Below are positions 26,009 to 53,000 of a stretch of 64,000 nt of DNA, in pieces. The position numbers and the translations under genes are program-made. Positions within the stretch are counted from its first letter, which is position 1; every line of letters starts with the position of its first letter. The stretch comes from a virus (taxonomy: Duplodnaviria; Caudoviricetes), in the IMG/VR virus record IMGVR_UViG_3300021375_000006, one strand, 5' to 3'. The notes under the pieces were generated by a model. It had not been told where the DNA came from. It ran no database searches and saw only the letters and a program-made list of their open reading frames with translations.

Positions 26009-26248
26009 TTAAGTCATCCAACCGCCAGATTCTTCCCAGTCTTTATGAGAAGATAGCATTGAATATGCCTCAAAAGAAAGTGTTACTTCAACATAACCCC
26101 CGGTTATAGATTGGGGACACTTAGACTCGCTTAGGTACCAGTTAGGTGCATCTTTAATCCTACCATTCAAAAAATCAAATAGTGGATCTATGTGCATGTG
26201 GTGTACCCATATATTGATATGCATACATGTCATGTTTGCTTTACCCAT
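26009..26248 (-). CDS. hypothetical protein
   Basis: 79-aa ORF. Confidence 0.55.
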   Translation of the reverse strand: MGKANMTCMHINIWVHHMHIDPLFDFLNGRIKDAPNWYLSESKCPQSITGGYVEVTLSFEAYSMLSSHKDWEESGGWMT

Positions 26249-27173: not shown

Positions 27174-27192
27174 AGATTATATATCTATGATT

Positions 27193-27621
27193 TTAAGACG
27201 GGAATACTTCAATCGTTCTTTCTTCTCTAACTAAATCTGCCCACTTGCCTTCGTATCTTGTACCTTTGACAATATGGTTATCAACCCAGTGATAGTTACC
27301 ACCTCTTGGTTTACCCATTAGTAGACCATGGTATTTGAATCCATGTTTGTTTAACCAAGCTTCTGTAATATCTCTTACATCTTCAGTTCTTGAAGTAAAG
27401 AAAGTAATTACATGGCCTTCGTCAAACCATTTATTTAAAGTTTCTTTTGCACCTGCATAGGGTAAGACTACTGACATTCTCTCTGGCTCTTCGTTTGGTA
27501 CATCATCTGTAATTGTGCCGTCAATGTCAATTAGATAGTTCTTACACCCATCGTTTAAAACAGGAGAGACTAGGTGTCCGTCATCTCCTATTGTTTCGTT
27601 AAATTTAATTTCTCTTTTCAT
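27193..27621 (-). CDS. HAD phosphatase (capsule-biosynthesis phosphatase-like)
   Basis: LIDIDGTI, FFTSR, LLMGKPRGG, WVD. Confidence 0.8.
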   Translation of the reverse strand: MKREIKFNETIGDDGHLVSPVLNDGCKNYLIDIDGTITDDVPNEEPERMSVVLPYAGAKETLNKWFDEGHVITFFTSRTEDVRDITEAWLNKHGFKYHGLLMGKPRGGNYHWVDNHIVKGTRYEGKWADLVREERTIEVFPS

Positions 27622-27634: not shown

Positions 27635-29062
27635 TTAAGGTTCTTCGTGGTTTCTAATAAATGATACAATAATATATCTCTTACCACCTGTAATTGGCCT
27701 CGCGCCATGTCTATGTGTAATCATTCCAGGGTGAAGTACTGCTGTACCTATTTGCTCTGGATTGGATAATTTTTGATACTGAGGGAACCAAGTTCCACCG
27801 CCACTAAATTCATCATTTAATTTAATAACCATCGTTAGGTGGCTTCTATCATGGTGTAGAGATAGGTGTGATTGTCTAGTCGTTGTATACCTAGCCATGA
27901 AGTTTTCATTTGAGAATGCGTCCCATTGTTTACCTTCTAGGTTCCATTGGTGAATTGCAAGAGGCCTAACTACTTCATGTAATACTTTATTGTAAATTTC
28001 ATCTAGGCCAATATCTTGTAGTAAGACATCATTAGTTGGATAGTGTTCGTGTCTGTCAATAGTCCACTTATCTTTAGCCTCTGCTAGAGCAATTGCTTCT
28101 CTACAGAATCTAGGAGTAAATAACGGGAATTCATATACGTTATCTCCTCTATCTGAAACCATTAAGTCATACTCTCCCTTTGATACTGATAGATTAATAT
28201 ACTTCTCTTTCCATTCATCCCAATTAGATATATCTAATATTTCAAAATACTCTGATGTATCAATATCAAATTCTGGTCTTACATATTCTGTTTGAGTTTG
28301 TTCAGGTTCCTGGTTAATTATTTCACGTTGGTTTGGACTACCCACTTCTGGTTCTATTGTAGAACCTCCAAGTTTACCACCTCTATTCTGTACTATAAAA
28401 TTTGGATCGCGTGTTGCTAATATAGTTAATGATTTTGGAAATAGTTCTTGAATATCATGTCTTCTATGCGGATAACCTAGTGCACTTAAATACTCATCTA
28501 CAGGAATCACGTTTTCTTTTAATCCACCTGATAATAATAGTTTTGCTACATTAGGGTTTTTAATAATATATGCATGTGCATTATACCAGTGTCTAGGATA
28601 AAGCCAAGTTTCATTAATAACCTCTTCTTCAACTTCTTTTTCAATTATATCTCTACCTAATAAGGCAACATCCCAATTAGTATCTACTGGAGGCTCTGCC
28701 AACATTGACATTGAATTACCTTCATTAAAGAAATCTTCTTCTAATATTAGTATTGGACCTAGCCCATCGAATACTGCAGCTTCCCATACTTTTCTATGTG
28801 AAATTGCACAACCAACCTCTCCTGGTAAAACAGACCTTCTCCACCAATCATTCCAAGAATAAGGTGACTCAGGGCCCACATCCCATTTATCATAAACGGT
28901 ATAACCCTCTTTTATATCACCTTCTCTACCATCAAATGCAGAAATAATTTCATACGGGGTATTTTCATAAAACGCACATGATTGTAACTTTTCTTCTATT
29001 GTTTGCTGAAGACTCTCTCTATTTGAGTCTAAAGCTATAACATAAATTTTATTAATTCTCAT
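27635..29062 (-). CDS. GT25 (COLGALT-like) glycosyltransferase fused to PLOD-like lysyl hydroxylase
   Basis: N-half: FDGR, GEVGCAISHRKVW, ILEED, WDVALLGR, AYII, PVDEYL; C-half: YEFPLFT, FMARY, HHD, GGGTWF, HPGMITHRH, KRYIIVSF. Confidence 0.88.
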   Translation of the reverse strand: MRINKIYVIALDSNRESLQQTIEEKLQSCAFYENTPYEIISAFDGREGDIKEGYTVYDKWDVGPESPYSWNDWWRRSVLPGEVGCAISHRKVWEAAVFDGLGPILILEEDFFNEGNSMSMLAEPPVDTNWDVALLGRDIIEKEVEEEVINETWLYPRHWYNAHAYIIKNPNVAKLLLSGGLKENVIPVDEYLSALGYPHRRHDIQELFPKSLTILATRDPNFIVQNRGGKLGGSTIEPEVGSPNQREIINQEPEQTQTEYVRPEFDIDTSEYFEILDISNWDEWKEKYINLSVSKGEYDLMVSDRGDNVYEFPLFTPRFCREAIALAEAKDKWTIDRHEHYPTNDVLLQDIGLDEIYNKVLHEVVRPLAIHQWNLEGKQWDAFSNENFMARYTTTRQSHLSLHHDRSHLTMVIKLNDEFSGGGTWFPQYQKLSNPEQIGTAVLHPGMITHRHGARPITGGKRYIIVSFIRNHEEP

Positions 29063-29082: not shown

Positions 29083-29110
29083 ATTATACTAAAGTAACGC
29101 GAAAAGTTTC
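29083..29110 (-). promoter_or_regulatory. class II promoter GAAAC-N17-TATAAT (upstream of GT25-LH; 12 further copies listed in findings)
   Basis: exact 17-bp spacing at 13 sites, all upstream of gene starts. Confidence 0.75.
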
Positions 29111-30645
29111 TCGTCCTCTAATAAGCTGTTATTATTTTTTTTAATATAGTATTGATCTACCTCTGTTAAGATACCCATAATATTTTTATAGTCTTCAGAT
29201 GCTAACATTTCTTCTTTCGAATTAAAGTGTTTAATACCATCAAGATCAAAATATTTTAAATCACCATTTTCGTCTATTGCACAATTATATACATTTACTA
29301 TATCAGTTAAAAGTATATTATGTTCTAGGGCTGCTTTAAAATGTTTTAAAATCTGTGGGTAAACTCCAATATCTACTGGCCACTTCCAGTCTTCCCAATC
29401 TGGATATATGTTATATTTAGCACAAAGAACTTGATCTGCTTCATACCTCTCTTGGACAGCAAATAATACACCCTTGTAGATTCCAACGTCATATAATTTA
29501 GGTACTATTCCTAAATCATATAATATTGAGTTTGTTTTTTTAATAACTAATAATTGCTTCATAGATGAAACAGGTGATGAAGCCCCAAAAGAAAATGGGT
29601 CAAGCGTTGCTTTACATGGGTAAATAAATTTTAGTAGATAATCATCATAATAAAAAACTTTATGATAATATCTAAAATCACCGTAATTATCAAAGTGTCC
29701 ACGGTATCTGTACCTGTCTTGGATTAATTTTTTAGTATTGATATTATCTGTATTGACCTTTATATCACATTCATTTACCTCAGCAATTACCTTTCCTGTT
29801 TCAGCCCACCAGTCTTTATATTCTAGCTTAAATTTATCTCTCTCAGGTTTGTGATATTTGTTTATTTGAACATCGTTTAAATAGCAATCAATACCTAACC
29901 CTACATCTTGCATGTATTTCTTTTGAATCTTATTACCAAGCTTAGCATCTATAGTATCAACCCAAGTACCTACCTGTCCAATCCTAAAATCATGAGTTGT
30001 ATATTTAACATCTGTATTAGACTCGTTAGGTAGTCTTACATCAACAGGTTTACTAATAGTATGTCCTAAGAATTTTGCTATCTTGTTTACAGAAGAATCA
30101 TACTCATTTATTATCTCTTCAAATGAAATGATTTCCATATCAAGATCAAGAAGTTCTTTGCTCATATAAACAGAAAACCAGTTCTTGTAATAATCTATTA
30201 ATAGATCTAAAAAGTTATCATGTTTTTTATCTGAAGACTTATATCCATCAAAATCAAAGTTTTCATAAAAGTCAGAGAAAGAAGTATATTTATTTTTAAT
30301 ATGGGGCCTATGATAACATGAAGTCATTATATCTCTAACATCTCTATAGATTAAGATTATTTTTGACTCAGAAAATATTTTTTGTAGTTTTTCTTCGTCA
30401 CCTAAATCTACAGAATGGTTGTGTTTGTAAAAATTTCTATAGTTATGAGAATGCGTCCATGTTACTTTATTACCTTCATTCATCCACCCATATAAACCGT
30501 TAAGTCCTGGCCATTCAAACTTAGTATAATCAAGATAATTTTTATCGATACTTTCATATCCAAAATTATTTACTATTAGATCTACTAATAAGTGAGTACC
30601 TCCTCTTCTTGCAGAAACTACTATAACATTCTTTTTAGAATCCAT
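29089..30645 (-). CDS. sulfotransferase-domain protein with C-terminal kinase-like domain
   Basis: SARRGGTHLL (5'-PSB), YRDVRDIMTS (3'-PB), ISFEE, FRIGQVGTW; C-half LTD..NVYN...YFDLDG. Confidence 0.7.
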   Translation of the reverse strand: MDSKKNVIVVSARRGGTHLLVDLIVNNFGYESIDKNYLDYTKFEWPGLNGLYGWMNEGNKVTWTHSHNYRNFYKHNHSVDLGDEEKLQKIFSESKIILIYRDVRDIMTSCYHRPHIKNKYTSFSDFYENFDFDGYKSSDKKHDNFLDLLIDYYKNWFSVYMSKELLDLDMEIISFEEIINEYDSSVNKIAKFLGHTISKPVDVRLPNESNTDVKYTTHDFRIGQVGTWVDTIDAKLGNKIQKKYMQDVGLGIDCYLNDVQINKYHKPERDKFKLEYKDWWAETGKVIAEVNECDIKVNTDNINTKKLIQDRYRYRGHFDNYGDFRYYHKVFYYDDYLLKFIYPCKATLDPFSFGASSPVSSMKQLLVIKKTNSILYDLGIVPKLYDVGIYKGVLFAVQERYEADQVLCAKYNIYPDWEDWKWPVDIGVYPQILKHFKAALEHNILLTDIVNVYNCAIDENGDLKYFDLDGIKHFNSKEEMLASEDYKNIMGILTEVDQYYIKKNNNSLLEDEKLFALL

Positions 30646-32671
30646 CTATGCCATCAGTTCTAGGGTTATCTTCTGTGATGCCGTTTCTTTCGAGCATCTT
30701 TTTATAGTCATCATTTATATTTCTGTCAAGAGTATTATATTGAGTATGCCAGTGGTATTTTAACCATTGGAACCCACCATAATCATATTTCCACGTATCA
30801 TAAAATGGTTTATATTGTTCATAGTGTGCCCTTAAAACTTCTTCACTAAAGAATGTGTGGAAATTACCCACATTTTTATGAATAGACCATTTATATTTTC
30901 TAGAATCATCTATACCAAGTGGTTCTAACTCTAAAAACTCAGAAACTTCACTTAAAAATTTACCTTGGTTCCAAAGTACATCTTCATATCTTAATACAAT
31001 ACAGTTATCTCCAAATTGTTTTGTATATGATTCTATTAATTCTGTTTGTTTATCTGCAATTTCATTCATGAATTCTACAACTCTAATATCGTCTGGATTA
31101 TTTGTGTAGTCTTTTGAATATATGTGAAGTCCATTATCAAAATTTAAAATGTTCATAGCAACTTCTCTAGGGTCAGATATAACTAAAAATACTTTAGTTT
31201 TATTTACATCAATAAACTCATCAATAACTTTATCTTCTAATGGAACATGGCTCTTAGACCATTTCGTTAGGTCAACTGTTTCCGGAAAGTTTTCTCTAAT
31301 TAACTCTTTAGATAATTCTGAACCAACCATCCTCCAGCCTACTAAAAGATATTCATTATTTTCATTAGGTTTCCTAAGCCATGTATCAGGTCCATTTCGC
31401 CATATACCAGGTCTTTCTTCTTTCCAATCTCCCTGTAAACCCATTGAATTTGTTACAGGCCTTACAGTCTTTTCTAATAACTTATTTTTTATTTTAAAAT
31501 ATTGTTCTGCATTATTTGTTATATGTGAATGCCATGCTTCTCCTGCTACATCCCATGTAAAATACCCTGCGGAATGTTCAGCATTACGTAATGCTTTATT
31601 TTTTAATTCTGTATCTATATCTAATAAAATCTTAGCGGCAAGATCAAACATCGTATCATAATCACTAAATGGCATAATTACCCCATCTTTAACAACTGAT
31701 GGTAAAGCCGCTTTATCTGAAACTATACATAAGACCCCATTCATTTGCATTTCCAATGCGGTTATACAAAATGTTTCTTCATAATCAGAAAGATATAACC
31801 AATATGTAGCTTTTTGAGCAGCAGAATATAGTTCTTGTTTAGAAACAGATCCCATATCTGTGACTCCCTGATCCTTTAAATCATTTAATTTATCTACTAC
31901 ACCATCTATATTATACCAACTTTCCTGTCCAGTTTCATTTGGATCAGAATATTTTGGATAATAAACATCTAAGGTTGCATTAGGCATTACCTTTTTAATT
32001 TTATACCAATTATCTAATAAAGCTACTAAACCTCTATCTACAGCAGATGCCCATATAAATTTATTTGGATCTTTAATAGTAGGTGCATTGTAGAAATCTT
32101 CTTTATTAATTCCATTAGGAATGGACATAAGTCCACCTCGCCATGTTGAATTATCTAGTCTAGCTGCATTTGCAATTTGGTTAGTAATTAAATTAGGATA
32201 TTTATTTTGAATTATATTTTCTACAACATGGTTAGATGCCCACTCTGATGGAGTTGTAATACATTGTATTTCGGTTAAATGTTTAAACTCTTCAAGACCT
32301 TCTATTGGTCTACCTTTATACCATGGTTCATATTCAGTATTGTGCATCCAAATCCATTTATATTTTGGATTTAGATCAGCATCTTCTAAGTAATTTAAAA
32401 AGTTTATATAGTTTACACCTATTACTATATCAAAGTAATCACTAGGTCTATGTAAAAAATTAAATTCAAATTCACCTAGGCCATGCCAAGTAACTCCATC
32501 AATCTTTTCACCATGTGAACTTTCAACCTCTCCGGCTACATGTACTTCATGGCCAAAATTTGATAATCGTTTACTTATCTCTATTACTGCTGTTTCTGTT
32601 CCGCCTAAACCGGTAGTTGTATTACCGTTAAATGTTTCAAATCGGTAACCTGTCCAAAATAGTATTCTCAT
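30635..32671 (-). CDS. GT4 (GT-B) glycosyltransferase fused to degenerate sulfotransferase-like domain
   Basis: GLGGTETAV, IWMHN, IPNGIN, EETFCITALEM; C-part ISDPRE, VLRYED. Confidence 0.75.
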   Translation of the reverse strand: MRILFWTGYRFETFNGNTTTGLGGTETAVIEISKRLSNFGHEVHVAGEVESSHGEKIDGVTWHGLGEFEFNFLHRPSDYFDIVIGVNYINFLNYLEDADLNPKYKWIWMHNTEYEPWYKGRPIEGLEEFKHLTEIQCITTPSEWASNHVVENIIQNKYPNLITNQIANAARLDNSTWRGGLMSIPNGINKEDFYNAPTIKDPNKFIWASAVDRGLVALLDNWYKIKKVMPNATLDVYYPKYSDPNETGQESWYNIDGVVDKLNDLKDQGVTDMGSVSKQELYSAAQKATYWLYLSDYEETFCITALEMQMNGVLCIVSDKAALPSVVKDGVIMPFSDYDTMFDLAAKILLDIDTELKNKALRNAEHSAGYFTWDVAGEAWHSHITNNAEQYFKIKNKLLEKTVRPVTNSMGLQGDWKEERPGIWRNGPDTWLRKPNENNEYLLVGWRMVGSELSKELIRENFPETVDLTKWSKSHVPLEDKVIDEFIDVNKTKVFLVISDPREVAMNILNFDNGLHIYSKDYTNNPDDIRVVEFMNEIADKQTELIESYTKQFGDNCIVLRYEDVLWNQGKFLSEVSEFLELEPLGIDDSRKYKWSIHKNVGNFHTFFSEEVLRAHYEQYKPFYDTWKYDYGGFQWLKYHWHTQYNTLDRNINDDYKKMLERNGITEDNPRTDGIDGF

Positions 32672-32672
32672 A

Positions 32673-33605
32673 TTATTTCTTTTTCTTCTTCTTCTTACTA
32701 CCACCAATACCACCGATTATCTTACCAGCTTTTTTGCCAGCATTACCGGCAGCATTACCAGCATCTTGTATAGGTTGAACTACTGGTTGAGCTGCTCTAG
32801 CGGCTTCATCTTTTTTTCTTTGTAATTCTGCTGCGGCTGCATCTGCTTGTCTTTTAGATTCTGCTGCGGCTGCATCTGCTTGTCTTTTAGATTCTGCTGC
32901 GGCTTCGTCTAATCTAAGTTTTTCTGCTGTTTCTTCTGCTAGTTTTTGAGCCGCTTCTTGTGCTGGATTAGTATTAACACTTACTGAAGTATCTACATCA
33001 ACCCCGACTAAAAGTGCTACTTTTCCGTCAACACCGACTGTTGCAACTCCATCATCCATCGTAGCTCCACCGCCAACTGCGGCTCCTGCTTGAACCCCAG
33101 CTGATACTCCAGCTCCAATTTCAGCACTATTACCATCGTCATCAGATACTGTATTAGATGCTCCAACTCCAACTGATGCTCCAGCTACTGCTCCTGCATG
33201 TCCTTCTGCTCCATCCATACCAACTTGTCCACCAGCCGATACTCCAGCACTTGCTTGAGCTCCTGCATGAACTTCGGTTTCATTTGAAATATCTCCATTT
33301 TCTACTGTATTAGATGCACCAACTTCTACTGATGTTCCAACTTCTGCTCCAGCTTCTACTTTGGCATTTCTACCATCGAATCCAGCTTCAGCGCCAGCTT
33401 CTACATGTGCTTCTGCATCTGCATGTGCTTCCTGTTTAAGTTCAAAGTCACCAATTGTATCTGTGTTTTCTACACCAGCATGAGCTTCAGCTCCCGCTTC
33501 TGCTCCAGCCGATACTGAAGTATCTGTTACTTCTGTTCCAGCACTTGCTCCTGCGGATGCTCCTAGGTTTTCATCACCTACTGATTTGTTTATTTCTTCT
33601 GACAT
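32673..33605 (-). CDS. Gly/Ala/Val-rich beta-repeat protein with helical C-part and poly-Lys tail
   Basis: AGAEAGAEAHAG-type repeats; QADAAAAESKR repeats; GSKKKKKKK end. Confidence 0.7.
   Translation of the reverse strand: MSEEINKSVGDENLGASAGASAGTEVTDTSVSAGAEAGAEAHAGVENTDTIGDFELKQEAHADAEAHVEAGAEAGFDGRNAKVEAGAEVGTSVEVGASNTVENGDISNETEVHAGAQASAGVSAGGQVGMDGAEGHAGAVAGASVGVGASNTVSDDDGNSAEIGAGVSAGVQAGAAVGGGATMDDGVATVGVDGKVALLVGVDVDTSVSVNTNPAQEAAQKLAEETAEKLRLDEAAAESKRQADAAAAESKRQADAAAAELQRKKDEAARAAQPVVQPIQDAGNAAGNAGKKAGKIIGGIGGSKKKKKKK
32826..32903 (-). repeat. 33-bp tandem repeat (QADAAAAESKR)
   Basis: ttctgctgcggctgcatctgcttgtcttttaga twice plus a partial copy. Confidence 0.85.
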
Positions 33606-33621
33606 AAAATTTATTATTATA

Positions 33622-34245
33622 TTATTTGTAATGTGAGCCACCAACCCATAAAACTAAAGATCTTCTAGTACCCTTGGTGACAGGAGATACTCTATGCATC
33701 ATATAACTTGGAAAAAGAACTGCGACTCCTCTACCTCTCGGACAGGTTGTTGCTCCCCAATCATTTGAAGTATCACCACCGGAAGTAATTTGTAATTCAC
33801 CACCTTCATATTCGTCTGAATCTGATAATTGAATTGTAATAGAAACTTTTCTTCTAGAGGGTAATTCACCAGGACCTATATCTTGGTGCCAGTCGTAGTG
33901 CCCATTTTCATGAGCATAATATTCTGTATATTGAATTTGTTCTGGAGCAGAGTGTAGATCGAATTGCCATAGATTATTATTTGCCTCTTCAGCAAAACCA
34001 ATTAATCTTTTATATAGCCAGTCCCAATCTTTATTCTGTGGAACCCATTTTACCATTGAGGAACGAACTCCTTCAGGATCGTTACCCTCAATAGTTTCGC
34101 CATCTGAGCCGATTGTAGTTGCTCGTTCTACTGGAAGTTCACTAGCTAATTTAATAATTTTACTAACCTCTTCCTTAGTTAAACCTTCTTTAAACCAATA
34201 CCATTGTTGTGGATCGTTTGTTGGTTGATTAAAACTGTAAGTCAT
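33622..34245 (-). CDS. 2OG-Fe(II) oxygenase, prolyl-4-hydroxylase-like phage family
   Basis: IQYTEY, WHQD (HxD), RKVSITIQLS, YEGGEL, FPSYMMHRVSPVTKGTRRSLV. Confidence 0.88.
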   Translation of the reverse strand: MTYSFNQPTNDPQQWYWFKEGLTKEEVSKIIKLASELPVERATTIGSDGETIEGNDPEGVRSSMVKWVPQNKDWDWLYKRLIGFAEEANNNLWQFDLHSAPEQIQYTEYYAHENGHYDWHQDIGPGELPSRRKVSITIQLSDSDEYEGGELQITSGGDTSNDWGATTCPRGRGVAVLFPSYMMHRVSPVTKGTRRSLVLWVGGSHYK

Positions 34246-34309: not shown

Positions 34310-35230
34310 TTAAACATCAGTTAAAGTAGCTGTTGCAGTTAATTGAGGTACGCCCTTATTATTACTATCAATATTATTTAATGTCATGATAATAGTTTCA
34401 TCTTCCTCCTTCTCATCATCTAAGACGTAGTTCAATGTAACTTGAGCTTGTCCGTTTGTAAATACAAATTTACCAAAAGCCCAACCCATTGTTGATGGTT
34501 CATAATCAGCTAAACCTACGTAACCATCTGCTTCAGCCTGGGCGCGGACATCTAAAATATCTTGCCAAGAGTTAGCAACTAACCCTACACTTTCATCTGC
34601 CGTTACATCCCATATATTAGCAGTACCAAGAAGGTAGAACGAAACTATAGTTCCATCAGGTACGTTATCTGCAGTTAGAGTCCATGTTGAGCTAGTGCCT
34701 TCAGGTGATATTGCAGGAGTAACTGATAACTGATAATTAGTTGGAAGTACCTCTGTTATTGTAGTAGTAGTCACTGGTGCTGGATAAGTCTCTGCTGGCA
34801 TACCTAATTGTGCTTTAACAGCTTCTGCTCTAGCATTTAATTCATTAAGTGCATCTAAACATAAAATTGAAAGAGCTTCATAGTCTATCCAATAATAATC
34901 CTCATCTACACCTAGCCAGTCCATAATCCTTACAAGACTTGGTTCTACTGCAGCTAATTCTTGTGCAATCAAACCAATTCTTTTAGGTTGTACTCCACCA
35001 AATTCTTCAGGTCTATCCCATCCAAATTCCTGACCTAATTCGTTCATATAGAAATAATAGGTTTCTAAAGCTTTGATTTTTTCAGTGGCAGAACCAACTG
35101 GTAAATTAATCTCTTTAGATAAAAGGTGTTGTGCCGCTGGTTTAATATCAACCGCGTACGCCCATCCACCTGAACCGTCGTTCTTTAAACTAAATCCAGG
35201 ATCGTAATTCCAATTCTCTATACCTGCCAT
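34310..35230 (-). CDS. stand-alone S74-type fibre chaperone-like domain plus C-terminal Ig/Calx-beta-like domain
   Basis: KIKALETYYF, IGLIAQELAAVEPSLV, IDYEALSILCLDALNELN; DDEKEEDETIIMTL. Confidence 0.65.
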   Translation of the reverse strand: MAGIENWNYDPGFSLKNDGSGGWAYAVDIKPAAQHLLSKEINLPVGSATEKIKALETYYFYMNELGQEFGWDRPEEFGGVQPKRIGLIAQELAAVEPSLVRIMDWLGVDEDYYWIDYEALSILCLDALNELNARAEAVKAQLGMPAETYPAPVTTTTITEVLPTNYQLSVTPAISPEGTSSTWTLTADNVPDGTIVSFYLLGTANIWDVTADESVGLVANSWQDILDVRAQAEADGYVGLADYEPSTMGWAFGKFVFTNGQAQVTLNYVLDDEKEEDETIIMTLNNIDSNNKGVPQLTATATLTDV

Positions 35231-35261: not shown

Positions 35262-37604
35262 TTAATAATATCCCATGTAACACATCCCGTATTGTGGACC
35301 GTCAACACTAGCACAACCCGTGACATAATTAATTGAACATGCACAAAGGTGTTGACTATAATAACCAGACGCAGATGATGACAGACTATTCCCTTCACAG
35401 TCTGTATAATAAATAGTCGAATAACATCCACCTCTATTAATTGTCCAATCGTAACATGAACATACAGCTCCAGCAGGGCCTTGAGGGCCTGCAGCACCTC
35501 TGTCACCTCTATCTCCACCATCTCCAGTTGAACCAATACTACCAGCAGGACCTTGTGGACCTTTTGGACCTTGTGAACCGTTAGCACCTTTTGGACCTGT
35601 ACCACCTTGAGCACCTGTAGCACCCTTTGGTCCTTGTGGACCAATTCCACCTTTTGGGCCGGTAACACCTTTATCACCGGTAACACCCTTTGGTCCTTGT
35701 GGACCAATTCCACCTGGAGAACCAGTTAGACCATCTGCCCCAACTGCACCTTTTGGTCCGGTAGGGCCTTGACTACCTATAATACCCTTTGCACCTTGTG
35801 AGCCAGTACCACCTGGAGAACCAGTTAGACCAGTTGGACCAGTTGCACCTTTAGCACCTGTTACACCTTTTGCACCTAAGTTACCTTTAGCACCTTGAAG
35901 ACCGTTGATACCTATACCACCAGTTGCACCAGTATCACCAGTTACACCTTTAGATCCCCCTGGACTTAGACCAGTTGCACCTTGTGCACCTGTATCACCT
36001 ACAGGAGCAGTACCTATTGTACCTTTATTACCTACATCACCACCAGCACCTTTAGCACCTTGATCTCCGGTTGCACCTATGCCGCCTTGATCTCCGCCGC
36101 CGCCTGTAGCACCTTGTGCACCTGTATCACCACCAGCACCTTTTGCACCAGTATCACCTATTATACCTTTATCGCCACCGCCGCCTGTAGCACCTTGAGC
36201 ACCAGTATCACCACCGCCACCTTTTAAACCTTGTGGACCCGTTGCACCTTGATCTCCGCCGCCACCTACAGCACCTACAGCACCTAAATCACCACCAGCA
36301 CCTTTAAGACCAGTATCACCTATAGGACCCTGGTCACCTGTAGCACCAATAATACCTTTTGCACCAGTATCACCTATTGGACTAGCACCTACAGCACCAC
36401 CAGCACCTTTAGCACCAGTATCACCTATTGGACTAGCACCTACAGCACCAATAATACCTTTTGCACCTTGATCTCCACCAGCACCTTTTGCACCAGTATC
36501 ACCTATTACACCTTTAGGGCCAATATTACCAGTAGCTCCCTGATCACCTGTTACACCTTTTGGACTATCACCAACGCCACCTTGAGGGCCTTGAGGACCA
36601 GTAACACCTTTAAGACCAACAGCACCAATATTACCTTGATCTCCGCCGGCACCTTTTGCACCTGTACCACCTTGGTCTCCAATTGGAGCAGTTCCTTGTG
36701 GACCTATTATACCTTTTTGACCAGTATCTCCACCAGCACCTTTCGAACCAGTATTACCAGTATCACCTGTAGCACCAATAATACCTTTTGCACCAGTATC
36801 ACCGATTGGACTATCACCACCAGCACCTTTTGCACCAGTATCACCTATATCACCTTGGCCACCAACAGCACCAATATTACCTTGATCTCCGCCAGCACCT
36901 TTTAAACCAACAAGACCTTGATCTCCACCAGGGCTAGTACCTTGATCTCCGCCGCCGCCTTGGGCACCGACTACACCTTGAGAGCCTGTAGCACCAAGAG
37001 CACCAACTGGACCTTGCGTACCGCCAGCTCCTTGTTCTCCTATTTCACCAAGATCACCTCCACCGCCGATAGCACCAGTATCACCTTGTGCGCCAGTACC
37101 ACCTGGAGAACCAATTGCACCACCATCACCTGTTATACCTTTTGGAGAATCACCACCAGCACCTTTAGCACCAGTATCACCAGTTACACCTTGTGGACCT
37201 TGATCGCCAACAACACCTGCAATACCGGCATCACCACCAGCACCTTTTGCACCAGTATCTCCTCCACCGCCGACATCACCAGTTGGACCAGTAGTACCTA
37301 TATCACCTTTTGAAGCAGGAGTAGTATGGTTATCACCAGCACCACCTGAATTACCAGGAGCACCTTGGTCACCACCGTCACCACTTCCACCAGTACCGCC
37401 TTTATTACCTTTGTTTCCTGGAGCACCTTGTAAACCTTTGACACCTTGGTCGCCACCGCCACCTTTAGCACCTTTAGTACCTTTTGCACCTGTTTCACCT
37501 TTTGTACCCGGCTCTCCTACTAAATAAGGAAAGTTTTTAGGTTCAAAATTAGAATCAGTCAGTACTTGGTTACCTGCGACAAGTATGTTTCTGTAATCAG
37601 CCAT
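35262..37604 (-). CDS. collagen-like fibre 2 (kinked, Gly-rich) with 8-Cys tip
   Basis: about 219 GXY triplets, nine Pro-X insertions, one 7-aa break. Confidence 0.92.
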   Translation of the reverse strand: MADYRNILVAGNQVLTDSNFEPKNFPYLVGEPGTKGETGAKGTKGAKGGGGDQGVKGLQGAPGNKGNKGGTGGSGDGGDQGAPGNSGGAGDNHTTPASKGDIGTTGPTGDVGGGGDTGAKGAGGDAGIAGVVGDQGPQGVTGDTGAKGAGGDSPKGITGDGGAIGSPGGTGAQGDTGAIGGGGDLGEIGEQGAGGTQGPVGALGATGSQGVVGAQGGGGDQGTSPGGDQGLVGLKGAGGDQGNIGAVGGQGDIGDTGAKGAGGDSPIGDTGAKGIIGATGDTGNTGSKGAGGDTGQKGIIGPQGTAPIGDQGGTGAKGAGGDQGNIGAVGLKGVTGPQGPQGGVGDSPKGVTGDQGATGNIGPKGVIGDTGAKGAGGDQGAKGIIGAVGASPIGDTGAKGAGGAVGASPIGDTGAKGIIGATGDQGPIGDTGLKGAGGDLGAVGAVGGGGDQGATGPQGLKGGGGDTGAQGATGGGGDKGIIGDTGAKGAGGDTGAQGATGGGGDQGGIGATGDQGAKGAGGDVGNKGTIGTAPVGDTGAQGATGLSPGGSKGVTGDTGATGGIGINGLQGAKGNLGAKGVTGAKGATGPTGLTGSPGGTGSQGAKGIIGSQGPTGPKGAVGADGLTGSPGGIGPQGPKGVTGDKGVTGPKGGIGPQGPKGATGAQGGTGPKGANGSQGPKGPQGPAGSIGSTGDGGDRGDRGAAGPQGPAGAVCSCYDWTINRGGCYSTIYYTDCEGNSLSSSASGYYSQHLCACSINYVTGCASVDGPQYGMCYMGYY

Positions 37605-37622: not shown

Positions 37623-40091
37623 TTAAGAACCTAATTGACTCTCAATACCTGTTAATTTCGTATCTAATTCTTTAATAGCCTCAATTAAAACAGCAGATAG
37701 TTTAGAGTAATCAACTCCTCTATAACCTTCTTCTGGATCTAATCCTGGAATTTGGAATACTAATTCTGGGAATTGAGCTTGTACCTCTTCGGCAAGCACA
37801 CCCATTCTAGGAGCAGTACCCATTCCTAATGATTGTGCGAATTCATTCGGATTCCAAATTACACCTCTAATTGCATTAATTTTAGTTAAGGTATTTCCAA
37901 TTGGACCTTCAATATTCTTTAATCTAGAATCTGAAGTTCCCGGAGGACCTGTAGGACCAGTTGCACCTTTTTGACCTTTTGGACCTTTTGGACCTTGTGA
38001 ACCTGTAGGACCTTGTGGACCAGTTAAACCTTGTGGACCAGTATTACCTTTTAAACCTTGTGGACCTGTTGCACCAGTATTACCTTTAAGACCAGTAGGA
38101 CCTGGAGAACCTCCGGGACCTGTAGGGCCAGTTGCACCAGTATTACCTTTAACTCCCTGTGGACCTGTAGGACCTCCGGGACCTGCAGGACCAGTTGCAC
38201 CAGTATTACCTTTAGCTCCCTGTGGACCTGTAGGACCAGTAGTACCTTTAATACCTTGTGAACCAGTAGCACCTTTAACTCCAGTAGGACCTTGTGGACC
38301 TTGTGCACCTCCACCACCTTGTGGACCGACTGGGCCTTGAGCACCTATATCACCTTTTGGACCAGTTGGACCTGAAGGCCCCGTTACACCTTTAAGACCA
38401 GTATCACCTTTTGGACCATTTGGACCTTTAGCTCCAGCAGGACCTTGTGGACCTTTAGCTCCCTGAGGACCTTTTGGACCAGCAGGACCTTGTGCCCCTT
38501 GACCACCTTGAGGACCTTTAGCCCCTTGACCACCTTGAGGACCTTTAGCACCTTGTGGACCGACTGGGCCTTTAGCACCTTGTGGACCAGTAACACCTTT
38601 TTGTCCTTTAACACCTTGTGGACCAGTATCACCTTTTGGACCAGTTGGACCTTTTGGACCTCCAGGACCAGTTGCACCAGTGTCACCTTTAGCACCTGTT
38701 GCACCTCCTGCACCTCCTGCACCAGTGTTACCTTTAGCACCTTGTGGGCCTTGACCACCCTGAGGACCTTTAGCTCCTTGTGGACCAGTATTACCTTTTG
38801 GACCGATTGGGCCTTTAACTCCTTGTGGACCAGTTGGACCAGTAACACCTTTAGCACCAGTATTACCTTGTGGACCTTTAGCACCTTGTGGACCAGTAAC
38901 ACCTTTAGCTCCAGCAGGACCTTGTGGACCAGTTGGACCAGTAACACCTTTTTGTCCTTTAACACCTTGTGGACCAGTATCACCTTTTGGACCAGTTGGA
39001 CCAATTATACCTTGTGGACCAGTATTACCTTTTAAACCTTGTGGACCAGTATTACCTTTAGTACCCTGTGGACCAACAGCACCTACACCACCTTGTGGAC
39101 CTTGTAGACCTTGACCACCTTGAGGACCTTTTAAACCTTGTGGACCAGTAGGACCTTGTGGACCTTTTGGACCAGCAATACCCTGTGGACCTTGCGGGCC
39201 AGTTATACCTTTTTGCCCTTTATCACCTTGTGGGCCAGTAGGACCTTGTGGACCTTTAACTCCTTGTGGACCAATTGGACCTTGCGGGCCTTTAGCCCCT
39301 TGTGGACCTTTTGCACCTTGTGGACCAGTATTACCTTTTGGTCCTTTTGGACCTTGTAGACCTTGACCACCTTGAGGACCTTTTAAACCTTGTGGACCAG
39401 TTGGACCAGTTTGACCTTTAGCTCCAGCAGGACCTTGTGGACCTTTCGGGCCAGTTACACCTTTTAAACCTTGTGGACCTTTATCACCTTGAGCTCCTTG
39501 TGGACCGGTTGAACCTTTTAATCCACCAGGACCTTGTGTACCTTGTGGACCTTTTGCACCCTGAGCCCCTTGAGGACCTTGAGGACCTTTAACACCCTGA
39601 GGACCTTGAGCACCTGTATCACCTTTAACACCTTGAGGACCAGTTGGACCTTTTGGGCCTTGCGCACCAGTTACACCTTTTAAACCTTGTGAACCCGTTG
39701 CACCTTTAACTCCAGGACCACCCTGCGATCCCTTTGTACCTTGTTCACCTCCTGGGCCTTTAGCTCCTTGTGGGCCTTTAGCTCCAACTTCACCTTTTTG
39801 GCCTTTTGAACCAGCTAAACCTGGGGCACCCTTTGCACCGCCAACACCTTTAGCTCCTTGTCCACCTTTTTGACCTTTTTGACCTGGATCACCGCCGCCA
39901 CCTTGTGGGCCTTTAGGACCTTGACTTCCAACTTCACCTTTTAGACCCTTTTCTCCACCGGGGCCTTGTTGTCCTTGGTCTCCCTTGGATCCTGTAGCTC
40001 CTTTCATGGCACTGTATTGTGTAGGGTCGAAGTTTCCAGCTGTTAGAATAATAGATCCTTGTACTGTAGCTCCTGCTTTTAAATTTGCCAT
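37623..40091 (-). CDS. collagen-like fibre 1 with C-terminal peptidase S74 intramolecular chaperone
   Basis: 229 uninterrupted GXY triplets; SDSRLKN...GVLAEEV...VDYSKL...EAIKEL. Confidence 0.95.
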
Positions 40092-42306: not shown

Positions 42307-45015
42307 TTAAAATTCGAATCTTATTGTACTACCATCTGATGTTATTTCACCTCCGCTATTAAAGACGTATTTTGTAGTTACAATATGTCCCGTTGAAACA
42401 GTAAGAATACTCGTTGAATCATTGAAAGTCATATTTGATTCTCCAGTAAATGGTGTGCTTGAATTACCTGTCATGGTAACAACTCTGTTATTGGTGTTAC
42501 CTGATGCGATTGAAACAGCAGCGTCTGTACCTGATGTACCTGATGAACCTGAAGTTCCAGATGAACCTGAAGTTCCAGATGAACCAGATGTTCCAGATGA
42601 GCCTGAGCTACCAGATGAACCAGATGAACCTGACGTTCCAGAAGAACCAGATGAACCTGACGTTCCAGAAGAACCAGATGAACCTGAAGTTCCAGAAGAA
42701 CCAGATGAACCTGAAGTTCCAGAAGAACCGCTTGAACCAGATGAACCTGAAGTTCCAGAAGAACCAGATGAACCTGAAGTTCCAGATGAACCTGAGCTAC
42801 CTGAAGTACCGTTTAAATCATGTACTGGATTCCAGCTACTACCGTCCCATTGGAAAACTCGTCCATCAGCAGTGTAACCTAATTGTCCAACAAATTCACC
42901 ATTACCTAGGTCAGCAAGATCAGTTCCTGATTTAGCACCTGTATAACCAGATGAACCTGAAGTTCCAGATGAACCTGAAGAACCTGAAGTTCCAGATGAA
43001 CCAGATGAACCAGATGTACCGGAAGAACCACTTGAACCAGATGAACCTGAAGTTCCAGATGAACCTGAAGAACCTGAAGTTCCAGATGAACCTGAAGAAC
43101 CTGAAGTTCCAGATGAACCTGAAGAACCTGAAGTTCCAGAAGAACCAGATGAACCAGATGAACCGCTTGTTCCAGAAGAACCTGAAGAACCACTAGAACC
43201 TGCAGCACCAGTATCACCTTTATCACCAGTTGCAACTAATGAAATTACAATATCATCGCCGTTAACAAATGGAGCTGCGCTTGATGAACCTACATTTGAT
43301 AAATCACTTAATGTCCACCATGCACCATTATCTGTTAAATTACCGATTGCAAATAATAAGTATTCGTCGGTATTGAATTTTTTAGATATTCTAATGTGTG
43401 CCTTAATACCAGATGTTACTGCATCTAAAGTTGTAAAGAATGACTCTATACTACCACTATCATCATCGGTTTGTGATATGTAGATATTACCTGCACTTGT
43501 TTGTGTTGTAAAGTTATCTAATCTTATTCTACCATTAGCAGGTTGAGCCGCGCTTGTAGCAGATGCAAATGTATAATCAAATGATGCACCACCAAAGTTA
43601 CCGTCTTGACCAGATGTACCTGATGAGCCAGACGTACCTGAAGAACCTGAAGAACCGCTTGTTCCAGATGAACCTGAAGAACCGCTTGTTCCAGATGAAC
43701 CTGAAGAACCGCTTGTTCCAGATGAACCTGAAGTTCCAGATGAACCTGAAGAACCAGACGTACCTGAAGAACCTGAAGAACCACTTGTTCCAGATGAACC
43801 CGAAGAACCTGAAGAACCAGATGAACCGCTTGAGCCGCTTGAACCAGAAGTACCATTTAAGTCACCTACTGGATTCCATGTTGCTCCATCCCATTCATAT
43901 ATGACACCATCTGCCGTATAACCTAATTGGCCAACAAACTCACCACTACCTAATCCTACAACTTCTGTTGCTGATTTAGCACCTGAGTAACCAGATGAAC
44001 CTGAAGAACCTGAAGTTCCAGAAGAACCGCTTGAACCAGATGAACCTGAAGTTCCTGAAGAACCAGATGAACCACTTGTTCCAGATGAACCTGAAGAGCC
44101 ACTTGTACCTGAATCACCAGATGAACCAGATGAACCGCTTGTTCCAGATGAACCAGATGAACCGCTTGTTCCAGATGAACCTGAAGAACCACTTGTTCCA
44201 GATGAACCTGAAGAACCTGAAGTTCCTGAAGAACCACTTGAACCACTTGAACCTGAAGTTCCTGAAGAACCACTTGAACCAGATGATCCGTTTAAATCGT
44301 TTAATGTAATCCATGATGCTCCATCCCATTGGTGTACCAGACCATCAGCAGTATAACCTAATTGACCGACAAACTCACCATTGCCTAATCCTATAACTTC
44401 TGTTGCTGATTTAGCACCTGAGTAACCAGATGAACCTGAGCTACCAGATGAGCCTGCTGAACCTGAAGTTCCTGATGAACCTGAAGTTCCTGATGAACCT
44501 GAAGTTCCTGAGCTACCTGATGAACCTGAAGTTCCTGAGCTACCTGAAGAGCCAGAAGTACCATCAATACCTGATGAACCACTTGAGCCTGAAGTTCCAT
44601 CAATACCTGATGAACCACTTGAGCCTGAAGTTCCATCAATACCTGATGAACCACTTGAACCTGAAGTCCCATCAATACCAGATGAACCAGATGAACCTGA
44701 AGTACCATCAATACCTGATGAACCACTTGAACCTGATGTTCCTGATGAACCACTTGAACCTGATGTTCCTGAAGAGCCGGATGAACCTGAAGTTCCTGAG
44801 CTACCTGAAGAGCCAGAAGTACCATCAATACCTGATGAACCACTTGAGCCTGATGTTCCTGATGAACCACTTGAGCCGGAAGTACCAGATGAACCATCTA
44901 ATGGTGCAGCTTGGTTTTCCCATTTGCCCGTAGCGTTGTTGTATGCTAAATAATCACCGTTTTGTGTATTATTTAACAAAAATTCTTGTATTTGTTTTAA
45001 TCTTAGTCTAGACAT
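42307..45015 (-). CDS. Gly-Ser-Ser/Gly-Thr-Ser repeat fibre protein
   Basis: long (GSS/GTS)n tracts separated by three copies of a GEFVGQLGYTADG..WDG module. Confidence 0.9.
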   Translation of the reverse strand: MSRLRLKQIQEFLLNNTQNGDYLAYNNATGKWENQAAPLDGSSGTSGSSGSSGTSGSSGSSGIDGTSGSSGSSGTSGSSGSSGTSGSSGSSGTSGSSGSSGIDGTSGSSGSSGIDGTSGSSGSSGIDGTSGSSGSSGIDGTSGSSGSSGIDGTSGSSGSSGTSGSSGSSGTSGSSGTSGSSGTSGSAGSSGSSGSSGYSGAKSATEVIGLGNGEFVGQLGYTADGLVHQWDGASWITLNDLNGSSGSSGSSGTSGSSGSSGSSGTSGSSGSSGTSGSSGSSGTSGSSGSSGTSGSSGSSGDSGTSGSSGSSGTSGSSGSSGTSGSSGSSGSSGTSGSSGSSGYSGAKSATEVVGLGSGEFVGQLGYTADGVIYEWDGATWNPVGDLNGTSGSSGSSGSSGSSGSSGSSGTSGSSGSSGTSGSSGSSGTSGSSGTSGSSGSSGTSGSSGSSGTSGSSGSSGTSGSSGTSGQDGNFGGASFDYTFASATSAAQPANGRIRLDNFTTQTSAGNIYISQTDDDSGSIESFFTTLDAVTSGIKAHIRISKKFNTDEYLLFAIGNLTDNGAWWTLSDLSNVGSSSAAPFVNGDDIVISLVATGDKGDTGAAGSSGSSGSSGTSGSSGSSGSSGTSGSSGSSGTSGSSGSSGTSGSSGSSGTSGSSGSSGSSGTSGSSGSSGTSGSSGSSGTSGSSGYTGAKSGTDLADLGNGEFVGQLGYTADGRVFQWDGSSWNPVHDLNGTSGSSGSSGTSGSSGSSGTSGSSGSSGSSGTSGSSGSSGTSGSSGSSGTSGSSGSSGTSGSSGSSGSSGSSGTSGSSGTSGSSGTSGSSGTSGTDAAVSIASGNTNNRVVTMTGNSSTPFTGESNMTFNDSTSILTVSTGHIVTTKYVFNSGGEITSDGSTIRFEF

Positions 45016-45093: not shown

Positions 45094-46362
45094 TTATATC
45101 TTATATAAATTTGTTTCCCAATCATAATCCAAGCTTAAATTATGTTCATTTTTACCGGACATTAAATTGTACAATAACTTTCCATAAGTATCTATTAAAC
45201 CATCATTAAAGACTGTGTATCTTGTTAAAACTTCTTCATTCCTCTTATTGTATTCATCGATATTCTTATCATGGTTTTCTATAACCCATTGTAATTGATC
45301 TGCGCCTTTATGTATTTCAAAATCTGGATAATAATATCCCGCATCTTTAATCATATCTGCGTTATGTATTAAAGGGAATTGTAAATACATTACATCTAAA
45401 TATGCATAATTAAGAGGGTTTTCCCATTGGTGTGATAAAACAATATCTGTGAATTGAGCTAATAAGTAGTGGATAGGAAATCTATGTTGAACTTGTAACC
45501 TCCCGGCATTGTCTTTATTTTTGCCTTGTGTTAAATGTAGTTTAGCTACAAACTTTTTCCAATATGCATTTTTATACAGTCTTGCAGCGCTCACTATATG
45601 TAGTTTATTAAAATCCCCGCCTCTATCCAATACTTCCTCTGCTATAAGCATAGGTATCATACTAAACTTTACTACATTTAAGTTAGGTTCAAATACAGTT
45701 AACCTTAAATCACCAGGCTTTTTTCCTGGTATGTAAATTGGCAACTGCTCTAGAGTAGGAACTACATTACCATTTTCATCAACAGCGTCTTTACTATATA
45801 AAGTATCTACCTCATCAATAAACATAGGGTCCCATACAAAAGGAACAGGCATTACTTTATTTCTAGGTAATCTATGAGTTACTGCGTAATAGTCATGATT
45901 TTGATAGCCTTGTTGTGGAACATACCACACCTCATCTATGGTTTGATTAAATGTTACGCCGCTTTTAACCTCGTCGCCTTCTTTGTGTATCATGTACTCC
46001 ATATCAATAACATAATTGTTACCGCATGCGTATTTTACTACACGTTTGTTTTTACCAGAAGACTTAAATTCATCAACTAAATCAGGACCGATCGCAATAC
46101 CCAATAAAAATAAAACATCCATGTTCTTATATTTTTTAAAGAAATCATAGCATGGATATGTTTCAGCATCCCACGTTAAGCATTTGTTATCTAATTTACC
46201 TGTAATTTTATTTCTAGGTATTACTTTATTAGTGTCTAACAAGTATACATCATGTCCTAATTTTTGTAAAGTCTTTTGTAAAAAAATGGCATTCATTTTA
46301 ATACCATTAATCCACATACTTTCTTTTTCTTTACGTATGCCTAGTGTTATGCCTATTCTCAT
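45094..46362 (-). CDS. DUF2827-family protein (predicted GT-B glycosyltransferase-like)
   Basis: WINGIKMNAIFL; SHQWENPLNYAYLD..Y..FPLIHN; DAGYYYPDF. Confidence 0.75.
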   Translation of the reverse strand: MRIGITLGIRKEKESMWINGIKMNAIFLQKTLQKLGHDVYLLDTNKVIPRNKITGKLDNKCLTWDAETYPCYDFFKKYKNMDVLFLLGIAIGPDLVDEFKSSGKNKRVVKYACGNNYVIDMEYMIHKEGDEVKSGVTFNQTIDEVWYVPQQGYQNHDYYAVTHRLPRNKVMPVPFVWDPMFIDEVDTLYSKDAVDENGNVVPTLEQLPIYIPGKKPGDLRLTVFEPNLNVVKFSMIPMLIAEEVLDRGGDFNKLHIVSAARLYKNAYWKKFVAKLHLTQGKNKDNAGRLQVQHRFPIHYLLAQFTDIVLSHQWENPLNYAYLDVMYLQFPLIHNADMIKDAGYYYPDFEIHKGADQLQWVIENHDKNIDEYNKRNEEVLTRYTVFNDGLIDTYGKLLYNLMSGKNEHNLSLDYDWETNLYKI

Positions 46363-50005: not shown

Positions 50006-53000
50006 TTAGAACGTTAATACTAAATAAGCATGCGGGAATTTCGATGGAGCACCGAATGCACCAGGAACCGCGTTACCATATAGTAATGTTGGTTGGTCAA
50101 CGTCTAACGTGACGTTATAGTTATTAGCACCTGAGAATACATCAGCAGCCCATTGTGAATCTTCACCAGAACCACCGTCTACTGTAGAACCATTTGTAAA
50201 TGCGCCAATACCTACTTCGTATGTTACTTGTTTTGTATCTCTATCGTAATGTGTTACTGCATAGTTACCAGTATTTGGATTCCAACCGTAACCTATAACT
50301 GATATTGGAGGGTTAGTCTCAGAAGCAAAGTTAAGTGTTACTGTGTGGTTAGAATTACCACCGCCTGCATTTTGAGATATAATTTGTGCGCCGCCTATAG
50401 AAAATCCACCAGCAGGAACAAATGCACTTTGACCAGTAATTAAGTTTTCATTTACATCATATTCTAATCTTAATAAGTACTTAGTAGCACCTCCGCCAGA
50501 ACCAGCAGGACCAGTAGGACCAGTAGGACCAACAGCACCAGATGTACCTGAAGAACCAGATGTACCATCTTGACCAGATGAACCTGAAGAACCTGAAGAA
50601 CCAGCAACACCATCTACACCAGATGAACCTGAAGAACCTGAAGAACCTGAAGAACCATCATTACCATCTACACCAGATGAACCTGAAGAACCTGAAGAAC
50701 CTGAAGTACCATCTATACCAGATGAACCTGAAGAACCAGATATACCTGAAGAACCAGATGAACCTGAAGAACCAGCAGGACCTTCTGGACCTGTGCCACC
50801 ATCAACACCTGAAGAACCAGATGAACCAGATGAACCAGATGAACCAGCTAAACCTTGTGGACCTTGAATAGAACCACCAGATACCCAGGTAAAACCATCC
50901 CATATCCATAATGAATCGTCGTCTTGTACTATATAAGCATCACCTTGGTCGTTTACATCTGCTGGTAAGTCACCAACACTTTGTACTGAACCTAGCATTG
51001 TAATACCTGTACCGGTAGAACCTTGAGGACCAGTAGGACCAACAGGACCAGTTGCACCATCTTGACCAGATGAACCAGATGAACCAGATGTACCTGAAGA
51101 ACCAGATGAACCAGCTTCACCTTGTGGACCTGTTTCACCAATTGTACCAGATGAACCTGAAGAACCAGATGTACCTGAAGAACCAGATGAACCATCATTA
51201 CCATCTATACCAGATGTACCTGAAGAACCAGATGTACCATCTTCACCAGATGTACCTGAAGAACCAGATGTACCATCTATACCAGATGAACCTGAAGAAC
51301 CAGATGTACCATCTATACCAGATGAACCTGAAGAACCTGAAGAACCATCTATACCAGATGAACCTGAAGAACCATCGTTACCAGCAGGACCAGGAGCACC
51401 AACTCCACCAGCTACACCATCTTGACCAGATGAACCTGAAGAACCAGATGAACCATCTATACCAGATGAACCTGAAGAACCAGATGTACCTGAAGAACCA
51501 GATGTACCATCTTGACCAGGATTACCTTGTGGACCTGTTTCACCAATTGTACCAGATGAACCTGAAGAACCAGATGTACCTGAAGAACCGCTTGTTCCTG
51601 AAGAACCAGATGAACCGTCAACACCAGGATTACCTTGTGGACCAGTTGCACCACCAGCGCCATCTTGACCAGATGAACCTGAAGAACCAGATGAACCGTC
51701 TAAACCAGATGTACCTGAAGAACCAGATGTACCATCAGCACCAGGATTACCTTGTGGACCAGTTGCACCATCAGCTCCATCTGCGCCGGCAGGACCAACG
51801 TCACCTACATCTCCTTTAAGACCTTGAGGACCTGCATCACCTTTAATACCTTGATTACCTTGTGGTCCTATTGCACCAGGAGCACCATCTTGACCAGATG
51901 AACCTGAAGAACCAGATGAACCATCTATACCAGATGTACCTGAAGAACCAGATGAACCATCAGCACCGTCTGCACCATCTTGACCAGATGAACCTGAAGA
52001 ACCAGATGAACCGTCTAAACCAGATGTACCATCAGCACCGTCTGCACCAGGAGCACCAGCCGCACCTTGTGGACCAGTTGCACCATCAGCACCAGCTGCA
52101 CCATCTTGACCAGATGTACCTGAAGAACCAGATGTACCTGAAGAACCAGATGAACCAGATGAACCGTCTTGACCAATAATACCGTCTTCACCGTCTGTAC
52201 CTGAAGTACCCGATGAACCAGATGAACCGTCTAAACCAGATGTACCTGAAGAACCTGAAGAACCTGAAGAACCAGATGAAGTAGCTGACTCAGAAAGAGC
52301 CAGAGTAATTTCGTCTGCACCAGGGCCTAAAGTACCACTTAAGCCACCTGTAAATCTTAACTTGTGAATTCCAGTAACAGGAGCAGTTTCATTAACTGTA
52401 ATATCTAAACCTGCTTCTTCTCTAGCCGCTGCTTGTGAAAAGAAAGTTTCATAGAATAAACCAAAGCTATCGCCTTCTGCCATTTTGTAAATCTCACCTG
52501 GCGTAGTAGAGTTAGCTTCATACTGTACAGTTACCTCAATTGCATCGTCATCATCTGAGTTCCTAGGAGCTAAAGGATCTGCGTTTAGTATGTCAATTCT
52601 AGAATAAGACACTAGTCTAAATACTGAATATTCACTATTGTTTCTTACGTTTGTAAAGAAAATATTAGATCTTAAACCATCTTGGTCTAATCTTTGTTCT
52701 AATAAATTCTCAAAATATTTGTTTCTAATACCCTTATCGTCTTTTACAGCTATTTTAAACTTAGTGACCTGATCTGGTCTATCTGCATTAAAGATAATCT
52801 GACCTTGAGAAGGGTTATTGTTATTAAAGTAATTTAAACTGGCGCCGGCAACAGAATATACTGTTGAAGGTACACCATATCTTGACGCTACAATATCACC
52901 TATTGTATCACCTGCGTCATATACATTACCTAACTTTAAAATAGGTAATACTACTTCACTGATACCTTCTGTTACTTTAAGTCTTACCCAACATTCACCA

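Follow-up and report, generated by a model that had tools for sequence, protein, structure and literature searches.

A collagen-like fibre of a marine jumbo phage as the likely substrate of a phage hydroxylysine-glycosylation module

The DNA analysed here (64,000 nucleotides of the IMG/VR virus record IMGVR_UViG_3300021375_000006, referred to below as the window) encodes a collagen-like fibre protein which, judging from sequence comparisons, is likely to be the substrate of a hydroxylysine-glycosylation module of the phage. The fibre would probably be sugar-coated in an animal-like way. The evidence comes from the order of the genes, from the catalytic residues of an enzyme with a lysyl hydroxylase (LH) domain encoded downstream, and from the context of the fibre lysines. 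The idea of an LH substrate is supported by the observation that acid-free, Arg-free lysines track with LH genes in viral collagens.

The fibre gene and the phage

The window belongs to a jumbo marine phage of approx. 250 kb; the same LH protein is encoded on a contig of 254,553 bases. Metagenomes that contain the collagen gene come mostly from seawater, marshes and urban sites. Ribosomal protein bS21 is encoded at 21273-21473 on the minus strand (PF01165, E 1e-11); in other large aquatic phages this gene goes with Bacteroidetes hosts (PMC9723584), and by analogy the host is probably a member of the Bacteroidota. Two genes of the thymidylate synthase family are present (55623-56486 and 59236-60156, both minus strand), the former being divergent (E 7e-19) and possibly encoding a base-modifying enzyme. 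The fibre gene comprises the following parts:

37623..40091, minus strand: collagen-like fibre gene (Pfam Collagen, E 3.5e-89, plus S74; PHROGs tail-fibre families)
40002..40091, minus strand: 30-aa N-terminal segment, identical in loci L482/L485 and similar in L002
37941..40001, minus strand: Gly-X-Y region, 229 uninterrupted triplets, approx. 196 nm
37626..37934, minus strand: S74 intramolecular chaperone, directly after the last triplet (PF13884, aa 720-778)

Over its 822 aa the protein thus passes from an N-terminal segment of 30 aa through a Gly-X-Y run free of interruptions to the S74 domain at its C-terminus. The 229 triplets reported in an earlier note on this DNA agree with our recount (aa 31-717, nt 40001-37941). 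Gly occurs at every third residue without a break in aa 31-720 (230 triplets), but the last triplet (GTS) includes Ser720, which is part of the S74 motif, and 229 is therefore the fair count. The computed length of the rod is 196-197 nm (0.286 nm per residue), close to the 195 nm or so predicted earlier.

A trimerisation domain adjoins the helix, since the PF13884 match (31 bits) lies above the cut-off of 22. Its dyad, Ser720-x4-Lys725, is located at the start of the domain and has a spacing identical to that of the endoNF dyad S911/K916 (PMC8326128). The N-terminus resembles that of the neighbouring collagen (38% across 34 aa, some of them in the first triplets), and the 30-aa segment is a probable virion anchor.

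Full-length homologues of the fibre protein were found at 61-100% identity. The 822-aa gene is present in four other assemblies (99.9-100% identity), which rules out an assembly artefact. Fragments of the gene in two metatranscriptomes were not used as evidence, because many other collagens cross-map and contigs are no measure of expression.

The downstream gene run and the GT25-LH enzyme

Downstream of the fibre gene lies a run of genes on the same strand, whose order is kept in relatives:

35262..37604, minus strand: second collagen, interrupted, 780 aa, Cys-rich C-terminus (Y-Lys 18%, K-G-D/E 3%); a second candidate substrate
34310..35230, minus strand: protein of 306 aa whose N-terminal domain is S74-like (PF13884 model positions 11-57, without the catalytic Ser region); possibly a separate chaperone
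33622..34245, minus strand: PKHD-type 2OG-Fe(II) oxygenase (PF13640; PiuC E 2e-6)
30635..32713, minus strand: GT4 (GT-B) glycosyltransferase fused to a degenerate sulfotransferase (domain match)
29089..30645, minus strand: sulfotransferase with an extra C-terminal domain (PF00685, E 1e-11), position kept in close relatives
27635..29062, minus strand: 475-aa fusion of a COLGALT1 catalytic-domain-like GT25 with a PLOD-type LH

In the GT25-LH fusion, located 8.6 kb downstream of the fibre gene, the LH domain matches mimivirus L230 (E 2e-28, its best match among solved structures) and human LH3 (4e-23), and the GT25 domain matches the catalytic domain of COLGALT1 (2e-7), with profile matches at E 1e-35, 5e-30 and 9e-20. 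The LH domain retains the HxD...H...R metal/2OG ligands (H403, D405, H452 and R462). In the GT25 domain, C85, E108, D110 and D189 are the equivalents of COLGALT1 Cys412, Glu435, Asp437 and Asp522, mutation of any of which kills the enzyme (PMC12003778). The COLGALT1 residue Trp495 is replaced by Asn161, and Asp436 by Glu (EDD to EED), so that galactose is only a candidate donor sugar.

No PLOD-type GT-A glucosyltransferase was matched among the ORFs scanned from the gene run; GT4 is present instead. In related loci, 17 ORFs with LH (some of them redundant) match the GT4 part of 30635..32713 at their N-terminus, and this fusion to LH in relatives makes it a candidate for the second-sugar enzyme. 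Sulfation of the glycan by the product of 29089..30645 is speculative.

Homologues of the PKHD-type oxygenase were present in 53 fetched loci, 44 of which have LH. Directly after the GT25-LH gene lie an HAD phosphatase and an ATP-grasp gene (26241-27621, minus strand), found in 22 and 23 fetched loci, respectively, always with LH, which possibly reflects mere shared gene order. Between the oxygenase and GT4 lies the gene of a protein (32673-33644, minus strand) that is rich in Gly and Ala, has a helical repeat and ends in a poly-Lys tail; it is absent from the close relatives L478, L480, L482 and L485.

Elsewhere on the minus strand we noted (i) a DUF2827 protein (45094-46362) inside the fibre gene run, (ii) nearly Lys-free proteins with Gly-Ser-Ser/Gly-Thr-Ser repeats (42307-45015 and 50006-53308), the first of which varies in length among near-identical assemblies (800-902 aa), and (iii) near the end of the window, a candidate DxD glycosyltransferase identified by its motif (62210-62908).

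Composition of the triplets

The X position of the fibre is occupied by Pro (98), Ala (40), Val (17), Leu (14), Asp, Gly and Asn (10 each), Ser and Gln (9 each), Thr (5), and Glu and Ile (4 each), and never by Lys. At Y we counted Gln (73), Lys (69), Thr (52), Gly (11), Ala (7), Val (6), Pro (5), Ile (4), Ser (2) and Asn (1), with no Arg. The hand counts of the earlier note (about 69 G-X-K triplets or 30%, no Lys at X, Pro almost exclusively at X) are borne out: all 69 Lys are at Y, and 98 of the 103 Pro are at X. Pro takes up just 43% of the X positions, and Gly is found at 21 X/Y positions.

Every Lys (69/69) lies in a Gly-X-Lys-Gly context, which is necessary for a PLOD/COLGALT substrate but generic. 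As had been noticed, the lysines are mostly followed by GP (26), GN (9), GV (8) or GA (4) and seldom by GD (7) or GE (2); GQ follows in a further 7 cases. K-G-D/E accounts for 9 of the 69 Lys (13%), or 12 when i+5 bridges are counted, and the share of Lys next to an acid is 0.13 by a strict and 0.20 by a liberal count. With 14 acids against 69 Lys and no Arg, the net charge is about +55 per chain. Lys is evenly spaced, one every 3.3 triplets. Nine of the 14 acids are placed after Lys, compared with 4.2 in shuffles (P=0.0065); the fibre is therefore acid-poor rather than bridge-avoiding.

Against a coin-flip null, the restriction of Lys to Y (p 3e-21) and of Pro to X (p 2e-23) appears extreme, but this is the wrong null because the bias is common to all prokaryotic collagens. 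The collagens of E. coli prophages have 48.1% X-Pro, 0.3% X-Lys/Arg, 7.4% Y-Pro and 31.0% Y-Lys/Arg (PMC3368898, Table 4), and Y-Lys reaches at least 25% in 24 of 120 collagens from prokaryotic genomes, in line with the earlier caveat that it is common there. Since these collagens share the bias, the triplet pattern says nothing about modification, and as evidence for it we rejected the fraction of Y-Lys, the X-Pro content and the scarcity of Y-Pro. The earlier statement that the fibre is not a prolyl-4-hydroxylase substrate is weak for the same reason: low Y-Pro is generic in prokaryotes, and the P4H of B. anthracis also hydroxylates Pro at the X position (PMC8968730).

Lysine context in collagens with and without LH

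In order to compare phages with and without LH, viral collagens were drawn from IMG/VR with context-blind patterns (50 Gly-periodic codons; 40 with one Y-Lys), their contigs were searched with an LH profile spanning both phage clades, and near-duplicates were merged. We did not score short 2OG-oxygenase matches (20-40 bits, model positions approx. 130-192) as LH. The collagen-seeded loci L003-L079, chosen with Lys-containing patterns, were excluded from the main statistics, and only clusters at least 55% complete were regarded as fully searched in the group where LH was not found.

LH was found in 9 of the 64 Lys-rich clusters. In these the K-G-D/E share is 0.10-0.47, compared with 0.56-1.0 in the 10 clusters without LH whose completeness reaches 55% or more, nine of them at 0.86 or above (U test p=2.7e-4, Fisher 1e-5, both with clusters as independent units). 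The clusters are not fully independent, because collagen and enzymes are inherited as one cassette. The Y-Lys fraction in the same sample does not differ significantly by LH status (medians 0.23 with and 0.18 without LH, p=0.11).

The earlier note had judged the triplets to suit an LH substrate, to be refuted by the same Y-Lys fraction and context in LH-less phages. The fraction is indeed similar and, like the positional bias, generic, so that this part of the argument falls; the context differs and supports the judgement. The fibre, with 13% K-G-D/E and no Arg, falls at the modified-type end of the distribution.

Collagens from other sources show the pairing of Lys with acids that the fibre lacks. 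The share of near-acid Lys is below 60% in only 4 of 72 Lys-rich collagens of prokaryotic genomes; in the median one an acid is within reach of every Lys, and a search of 49 such genomes gave no LH. In the complete, collagen-seeded LH-negative phages L040 and L063, 93-100% of Lys are near an acid (same-triplet and i+5 counted). KGD makes up 13% of all viral collagen triplets (PMC11923368) and 3% of those of the fibre.

The association has exceptions. In ten further low-pairing clusters LH was not found, but each of these is either unsearched or a small fragment, complete to no more than a quarter or so; in two of them GT25 lies beside the collagen. L059, which is approx. 70% complete and whose contig stops one gene past the collagen, combines acid-poor Lys with the absence of LH. 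The LH-positive collagens L096 and L289 retain many acids within neighbouring triplets, and the distant homologue L002 (61%) has regained acids (25/62), so the trait is graded.

A second LH clade in cultured phages

A distant LH clade, in which Lys stands in the position of the 2OG-binding Arg, occurs in the unrelated cultured phages CRP-6, S-PRM1, S-CAM9 and S-8S55, where a Lys-rich collagen is encoded a few genes upstream of the enzyme:

L236, 33029-34798: Roseobacter phage CRP-6 gp58, GT25, PLOD-GT and LH in a single chain (LH3 E 9e-23)
L237, 10663-12507: Synechococcus phage S-PRM1 gp162, GT25 plus LH-like protein
L440 and L441: GT25 plus LH-like proteins of Synechococcus phage S-CAM9 and of S-8S55

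The PLOD-GT domain of CRP-6 is located between GT25 and LH. These proteins are mostly annotated as hypothetical. The collagen gp60 of CRP-6, two genes upstream of gp58, has 99 triplets with 26 Lys, no Arg and 9% acid, while gp158 of S-PRM1, upstream of gp162, has 59 triplets with 23 Lys. A tblastn search of the collagen against cultured phages gave S74 matches only, owing to low-complexity masking.

Alternative explanations

The lysines might instead be kept unmodified for their charge, the fibre being a polycationic whisker that binds anionic capsule, LPS, exopolymer or particles, with the LH acting elsewhere or merely hitchhiking in the cassette. We consider this unlikely, but both the charge of about +55 per chain and the even spacing of Lys agree with it, and it is the density of Lys that is conserved, not its position. 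In the homologues that are 73% and 84% identical, single Lys sites swap with Gln/Thr, Lys stays at 33-34% and there is at most one Arg, which suggests that Lys density, and specifically Lys, is under selection. Site-specific conservation of Lys was considered and rejected, as it is not clearly above that of Gln and is confounded by repeat shuffling.

Acid-free cationic collagens also occur in actinobacterial MAGs (L363, L384 and L389), where no LH was found; they carry Arg besides the acid-free Lys (Y-Arg 6-12%) and are strongly cationic. L384 and L389 share a C-terminal domain. A counter-case of the opposite kind is the complete 170-kb phage G010 (L111, L475), which has a GT4-GT25-LH gene (795 aa) yet two Pro-rich, GPI/GPQ-rich collagens that are nearly Lys-free (4 Y-Lys each). 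L217-L219 likewise have Lys-poor collagens; the actinobacterial and phage cases alike count against the LH-substrate reading. A role in charge should, however, accept Arg, as in the actinobacteria, whereas Arg is absent from the fibre and Y-Arg from all nine LH-positive clusters. It also leaves unexplained why two distant LH clades lie beside such collagens in different phage types.

It is improbable that the lysines are modified in some other way (by hydroxylation only, by direct glucosylation as with mimivirus L230, or by another modification or cross-link), or that Thr or X-Pro are the main targets. The loss of the Trp495 equivalent from GT25 would fit such chemistry, as would the 52 Y-Thr of the fibre, given that Thr glycosylation stabilises collagen helices (PMC11923368), and the presence in the window of a second 2OG oxygenase, an ATP-grasp enzyme and a GNAT. 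Against it, the best matches of both GT25-LH domains among solved structures are collagen Lys enzymes, and the fusions GT25-LH, GT4-GT25-LH and GT25-PLOD-GT-LH point to sequential action on hydroxylysine.

The proposal that triple-helix preferences and AT-rich codon drift suffice, as in any prokaryotic collagen, accounts for Pro at X, Lys at Y, scarce Y-Pro, the similar Y-Lys fraction with and without LH and a Y position encoded mostly by AAA (65), CAA (64) and ACT/ACA (49), but it is the least probable reading and, as regards Lys context, largely refuted, since AT-rich Gln/Thr-type collagens without LH are almost Lys-free (Y-Lys at most 3% in 31 of 36), which excludes AT-driven drift as the source of Lys, and LH-less Lys-rich collagens pair Lys with Asp/Glu.

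Proposed modification of the fibre

If the fibre is a homotrimeric collagen modified by the module, the known PLOD/COLGALT chemistry suggests the following course: (i) the PLOD-type domain would 5-hydroxylate the lysines of Gly-X-Lys-Gly on still-unfolded chains, (ii) the fused GT25 would place a beta-linked sugar on the hydroxyl, (iii) the neighbouring GT4 would probably attach a second, alpha-linked sugar, replacing the PLOD glucosyltransferase, and (iv) S74 would trimerise the C-termini, the helix zipping toward the N-terminus. The sulfotransferases may, speculatively, cap the glycan. Hydroxylation leaves the lysine amine and would not by itself solve the charge excess; the rod would stay cationic unless sulfate were added.

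S74 is predicted to cleave itself at Thr719/Ser720. As its dyad directly follows the last triplet, cleavage would leave a headless rod of approx. 196 nm, on which one triplet in every 3.3 could offer a site for a glycan. The working part would then be the surface of the rod, and we can only guess at its role, in adhesion (to a glycan-binding surface of the host or to particles) or in shielding against proteases.

Comparison with known systems

To our knowledge, hydroxylation and glycosylation of collagen lysines have been characterised only in animals and mimivirus; our literature search for such modification in phages found no case.

The protein belongs to the collagen-like fibres of phages. 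It resembles EPclA/EPclP, the tail fibres of E. coli O157:H7 prophages (PMC3368898), in its content of X-Pro (43% vs 48%) and of basic residues at Y (30% vs 31%), in their near absence from X, in low Y-Pro, in the frequency of GPK and GPQ and in having a C-terminal trimerisation domain. It differs in its S74 chaperone and in the gene run with LH and glycosyltransferases. The EPclPs have 35.6% Asp/Glu at X, and Arg (GER 8%), in contrast to 6% acid and no Arg in the fibre. The salt-bridge feature of the EPclA/Scl2 type, with most Y-Lys followed by Gly-Asp/Glu and balanced charge, is absent from the fibre (9/69).

Mimivirus, with L71, L230, R699 and R655 (PMC9546862), likewise has its own collagen, PLOD-type LH and glycosyltransferases. 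It infects amoebae, whereas the phage infects bacteria and has a 475-aa GT25-LH in which GT4 takes over from the missing PLOD GT domain as a separate gene, and its substrate is folded by S74. Activity has been demonstrated for L230 and R699 (PMC9546862); for the phage enzymes it is predicted from sequence. With human LH3/PLOD3 and COLGALT1 of the Glc-Gal-hydroxylysine pathway (PMC12003778) the phage shares the LH ligands, the four GT residues and Gly-X-Lys-Gly, but Trp495 is replaced, Y-Pro of the hydroxyproline type is lacking, Lys takes up 30% of Y, and the work would be done by fused enzymes in the bacterial cytoplasm. The S74-chaperoned fibres of K1F (endosialidase) and T5 (L-shaped fibre) share the C-terminal S74 with its Ser-x4-Lys dyad, which here would fold a collagen helix instead of a triple beta-helix, with no receptor-binding head left after cleavage.

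What is new here is the Lys-context test, the separation of generic from informative triplet statistics, the exceptions, and cultured phages (CRP-6, S-PRM1 and S-CAM9) in which modification could be sought directly by mass spectrometry. A broader proposition, which we hold only tentatively, is that fused enzymes of their own allow many aquatic tailed phages to make headless rods of collagen with a dense coat of glycosylated and possibly sulfated hydroxylysine. Such phages would have given up salt bridges, Lys context and the lack of Arg would show from the sequence of a microbial collagen whether it is modified, and one lineage would have swapped the PLOD glucosyltransferase for GT4. The phage enzymes bear on the origin of the PLOD/COLGALT pathway and, being compact and suited to the bacterial cytoplasm, could be useful for making modified recombinant collagen. 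If the modification is real, the glycan coat of phage fibres is of the phage's own making and may govern attachment in the sea.
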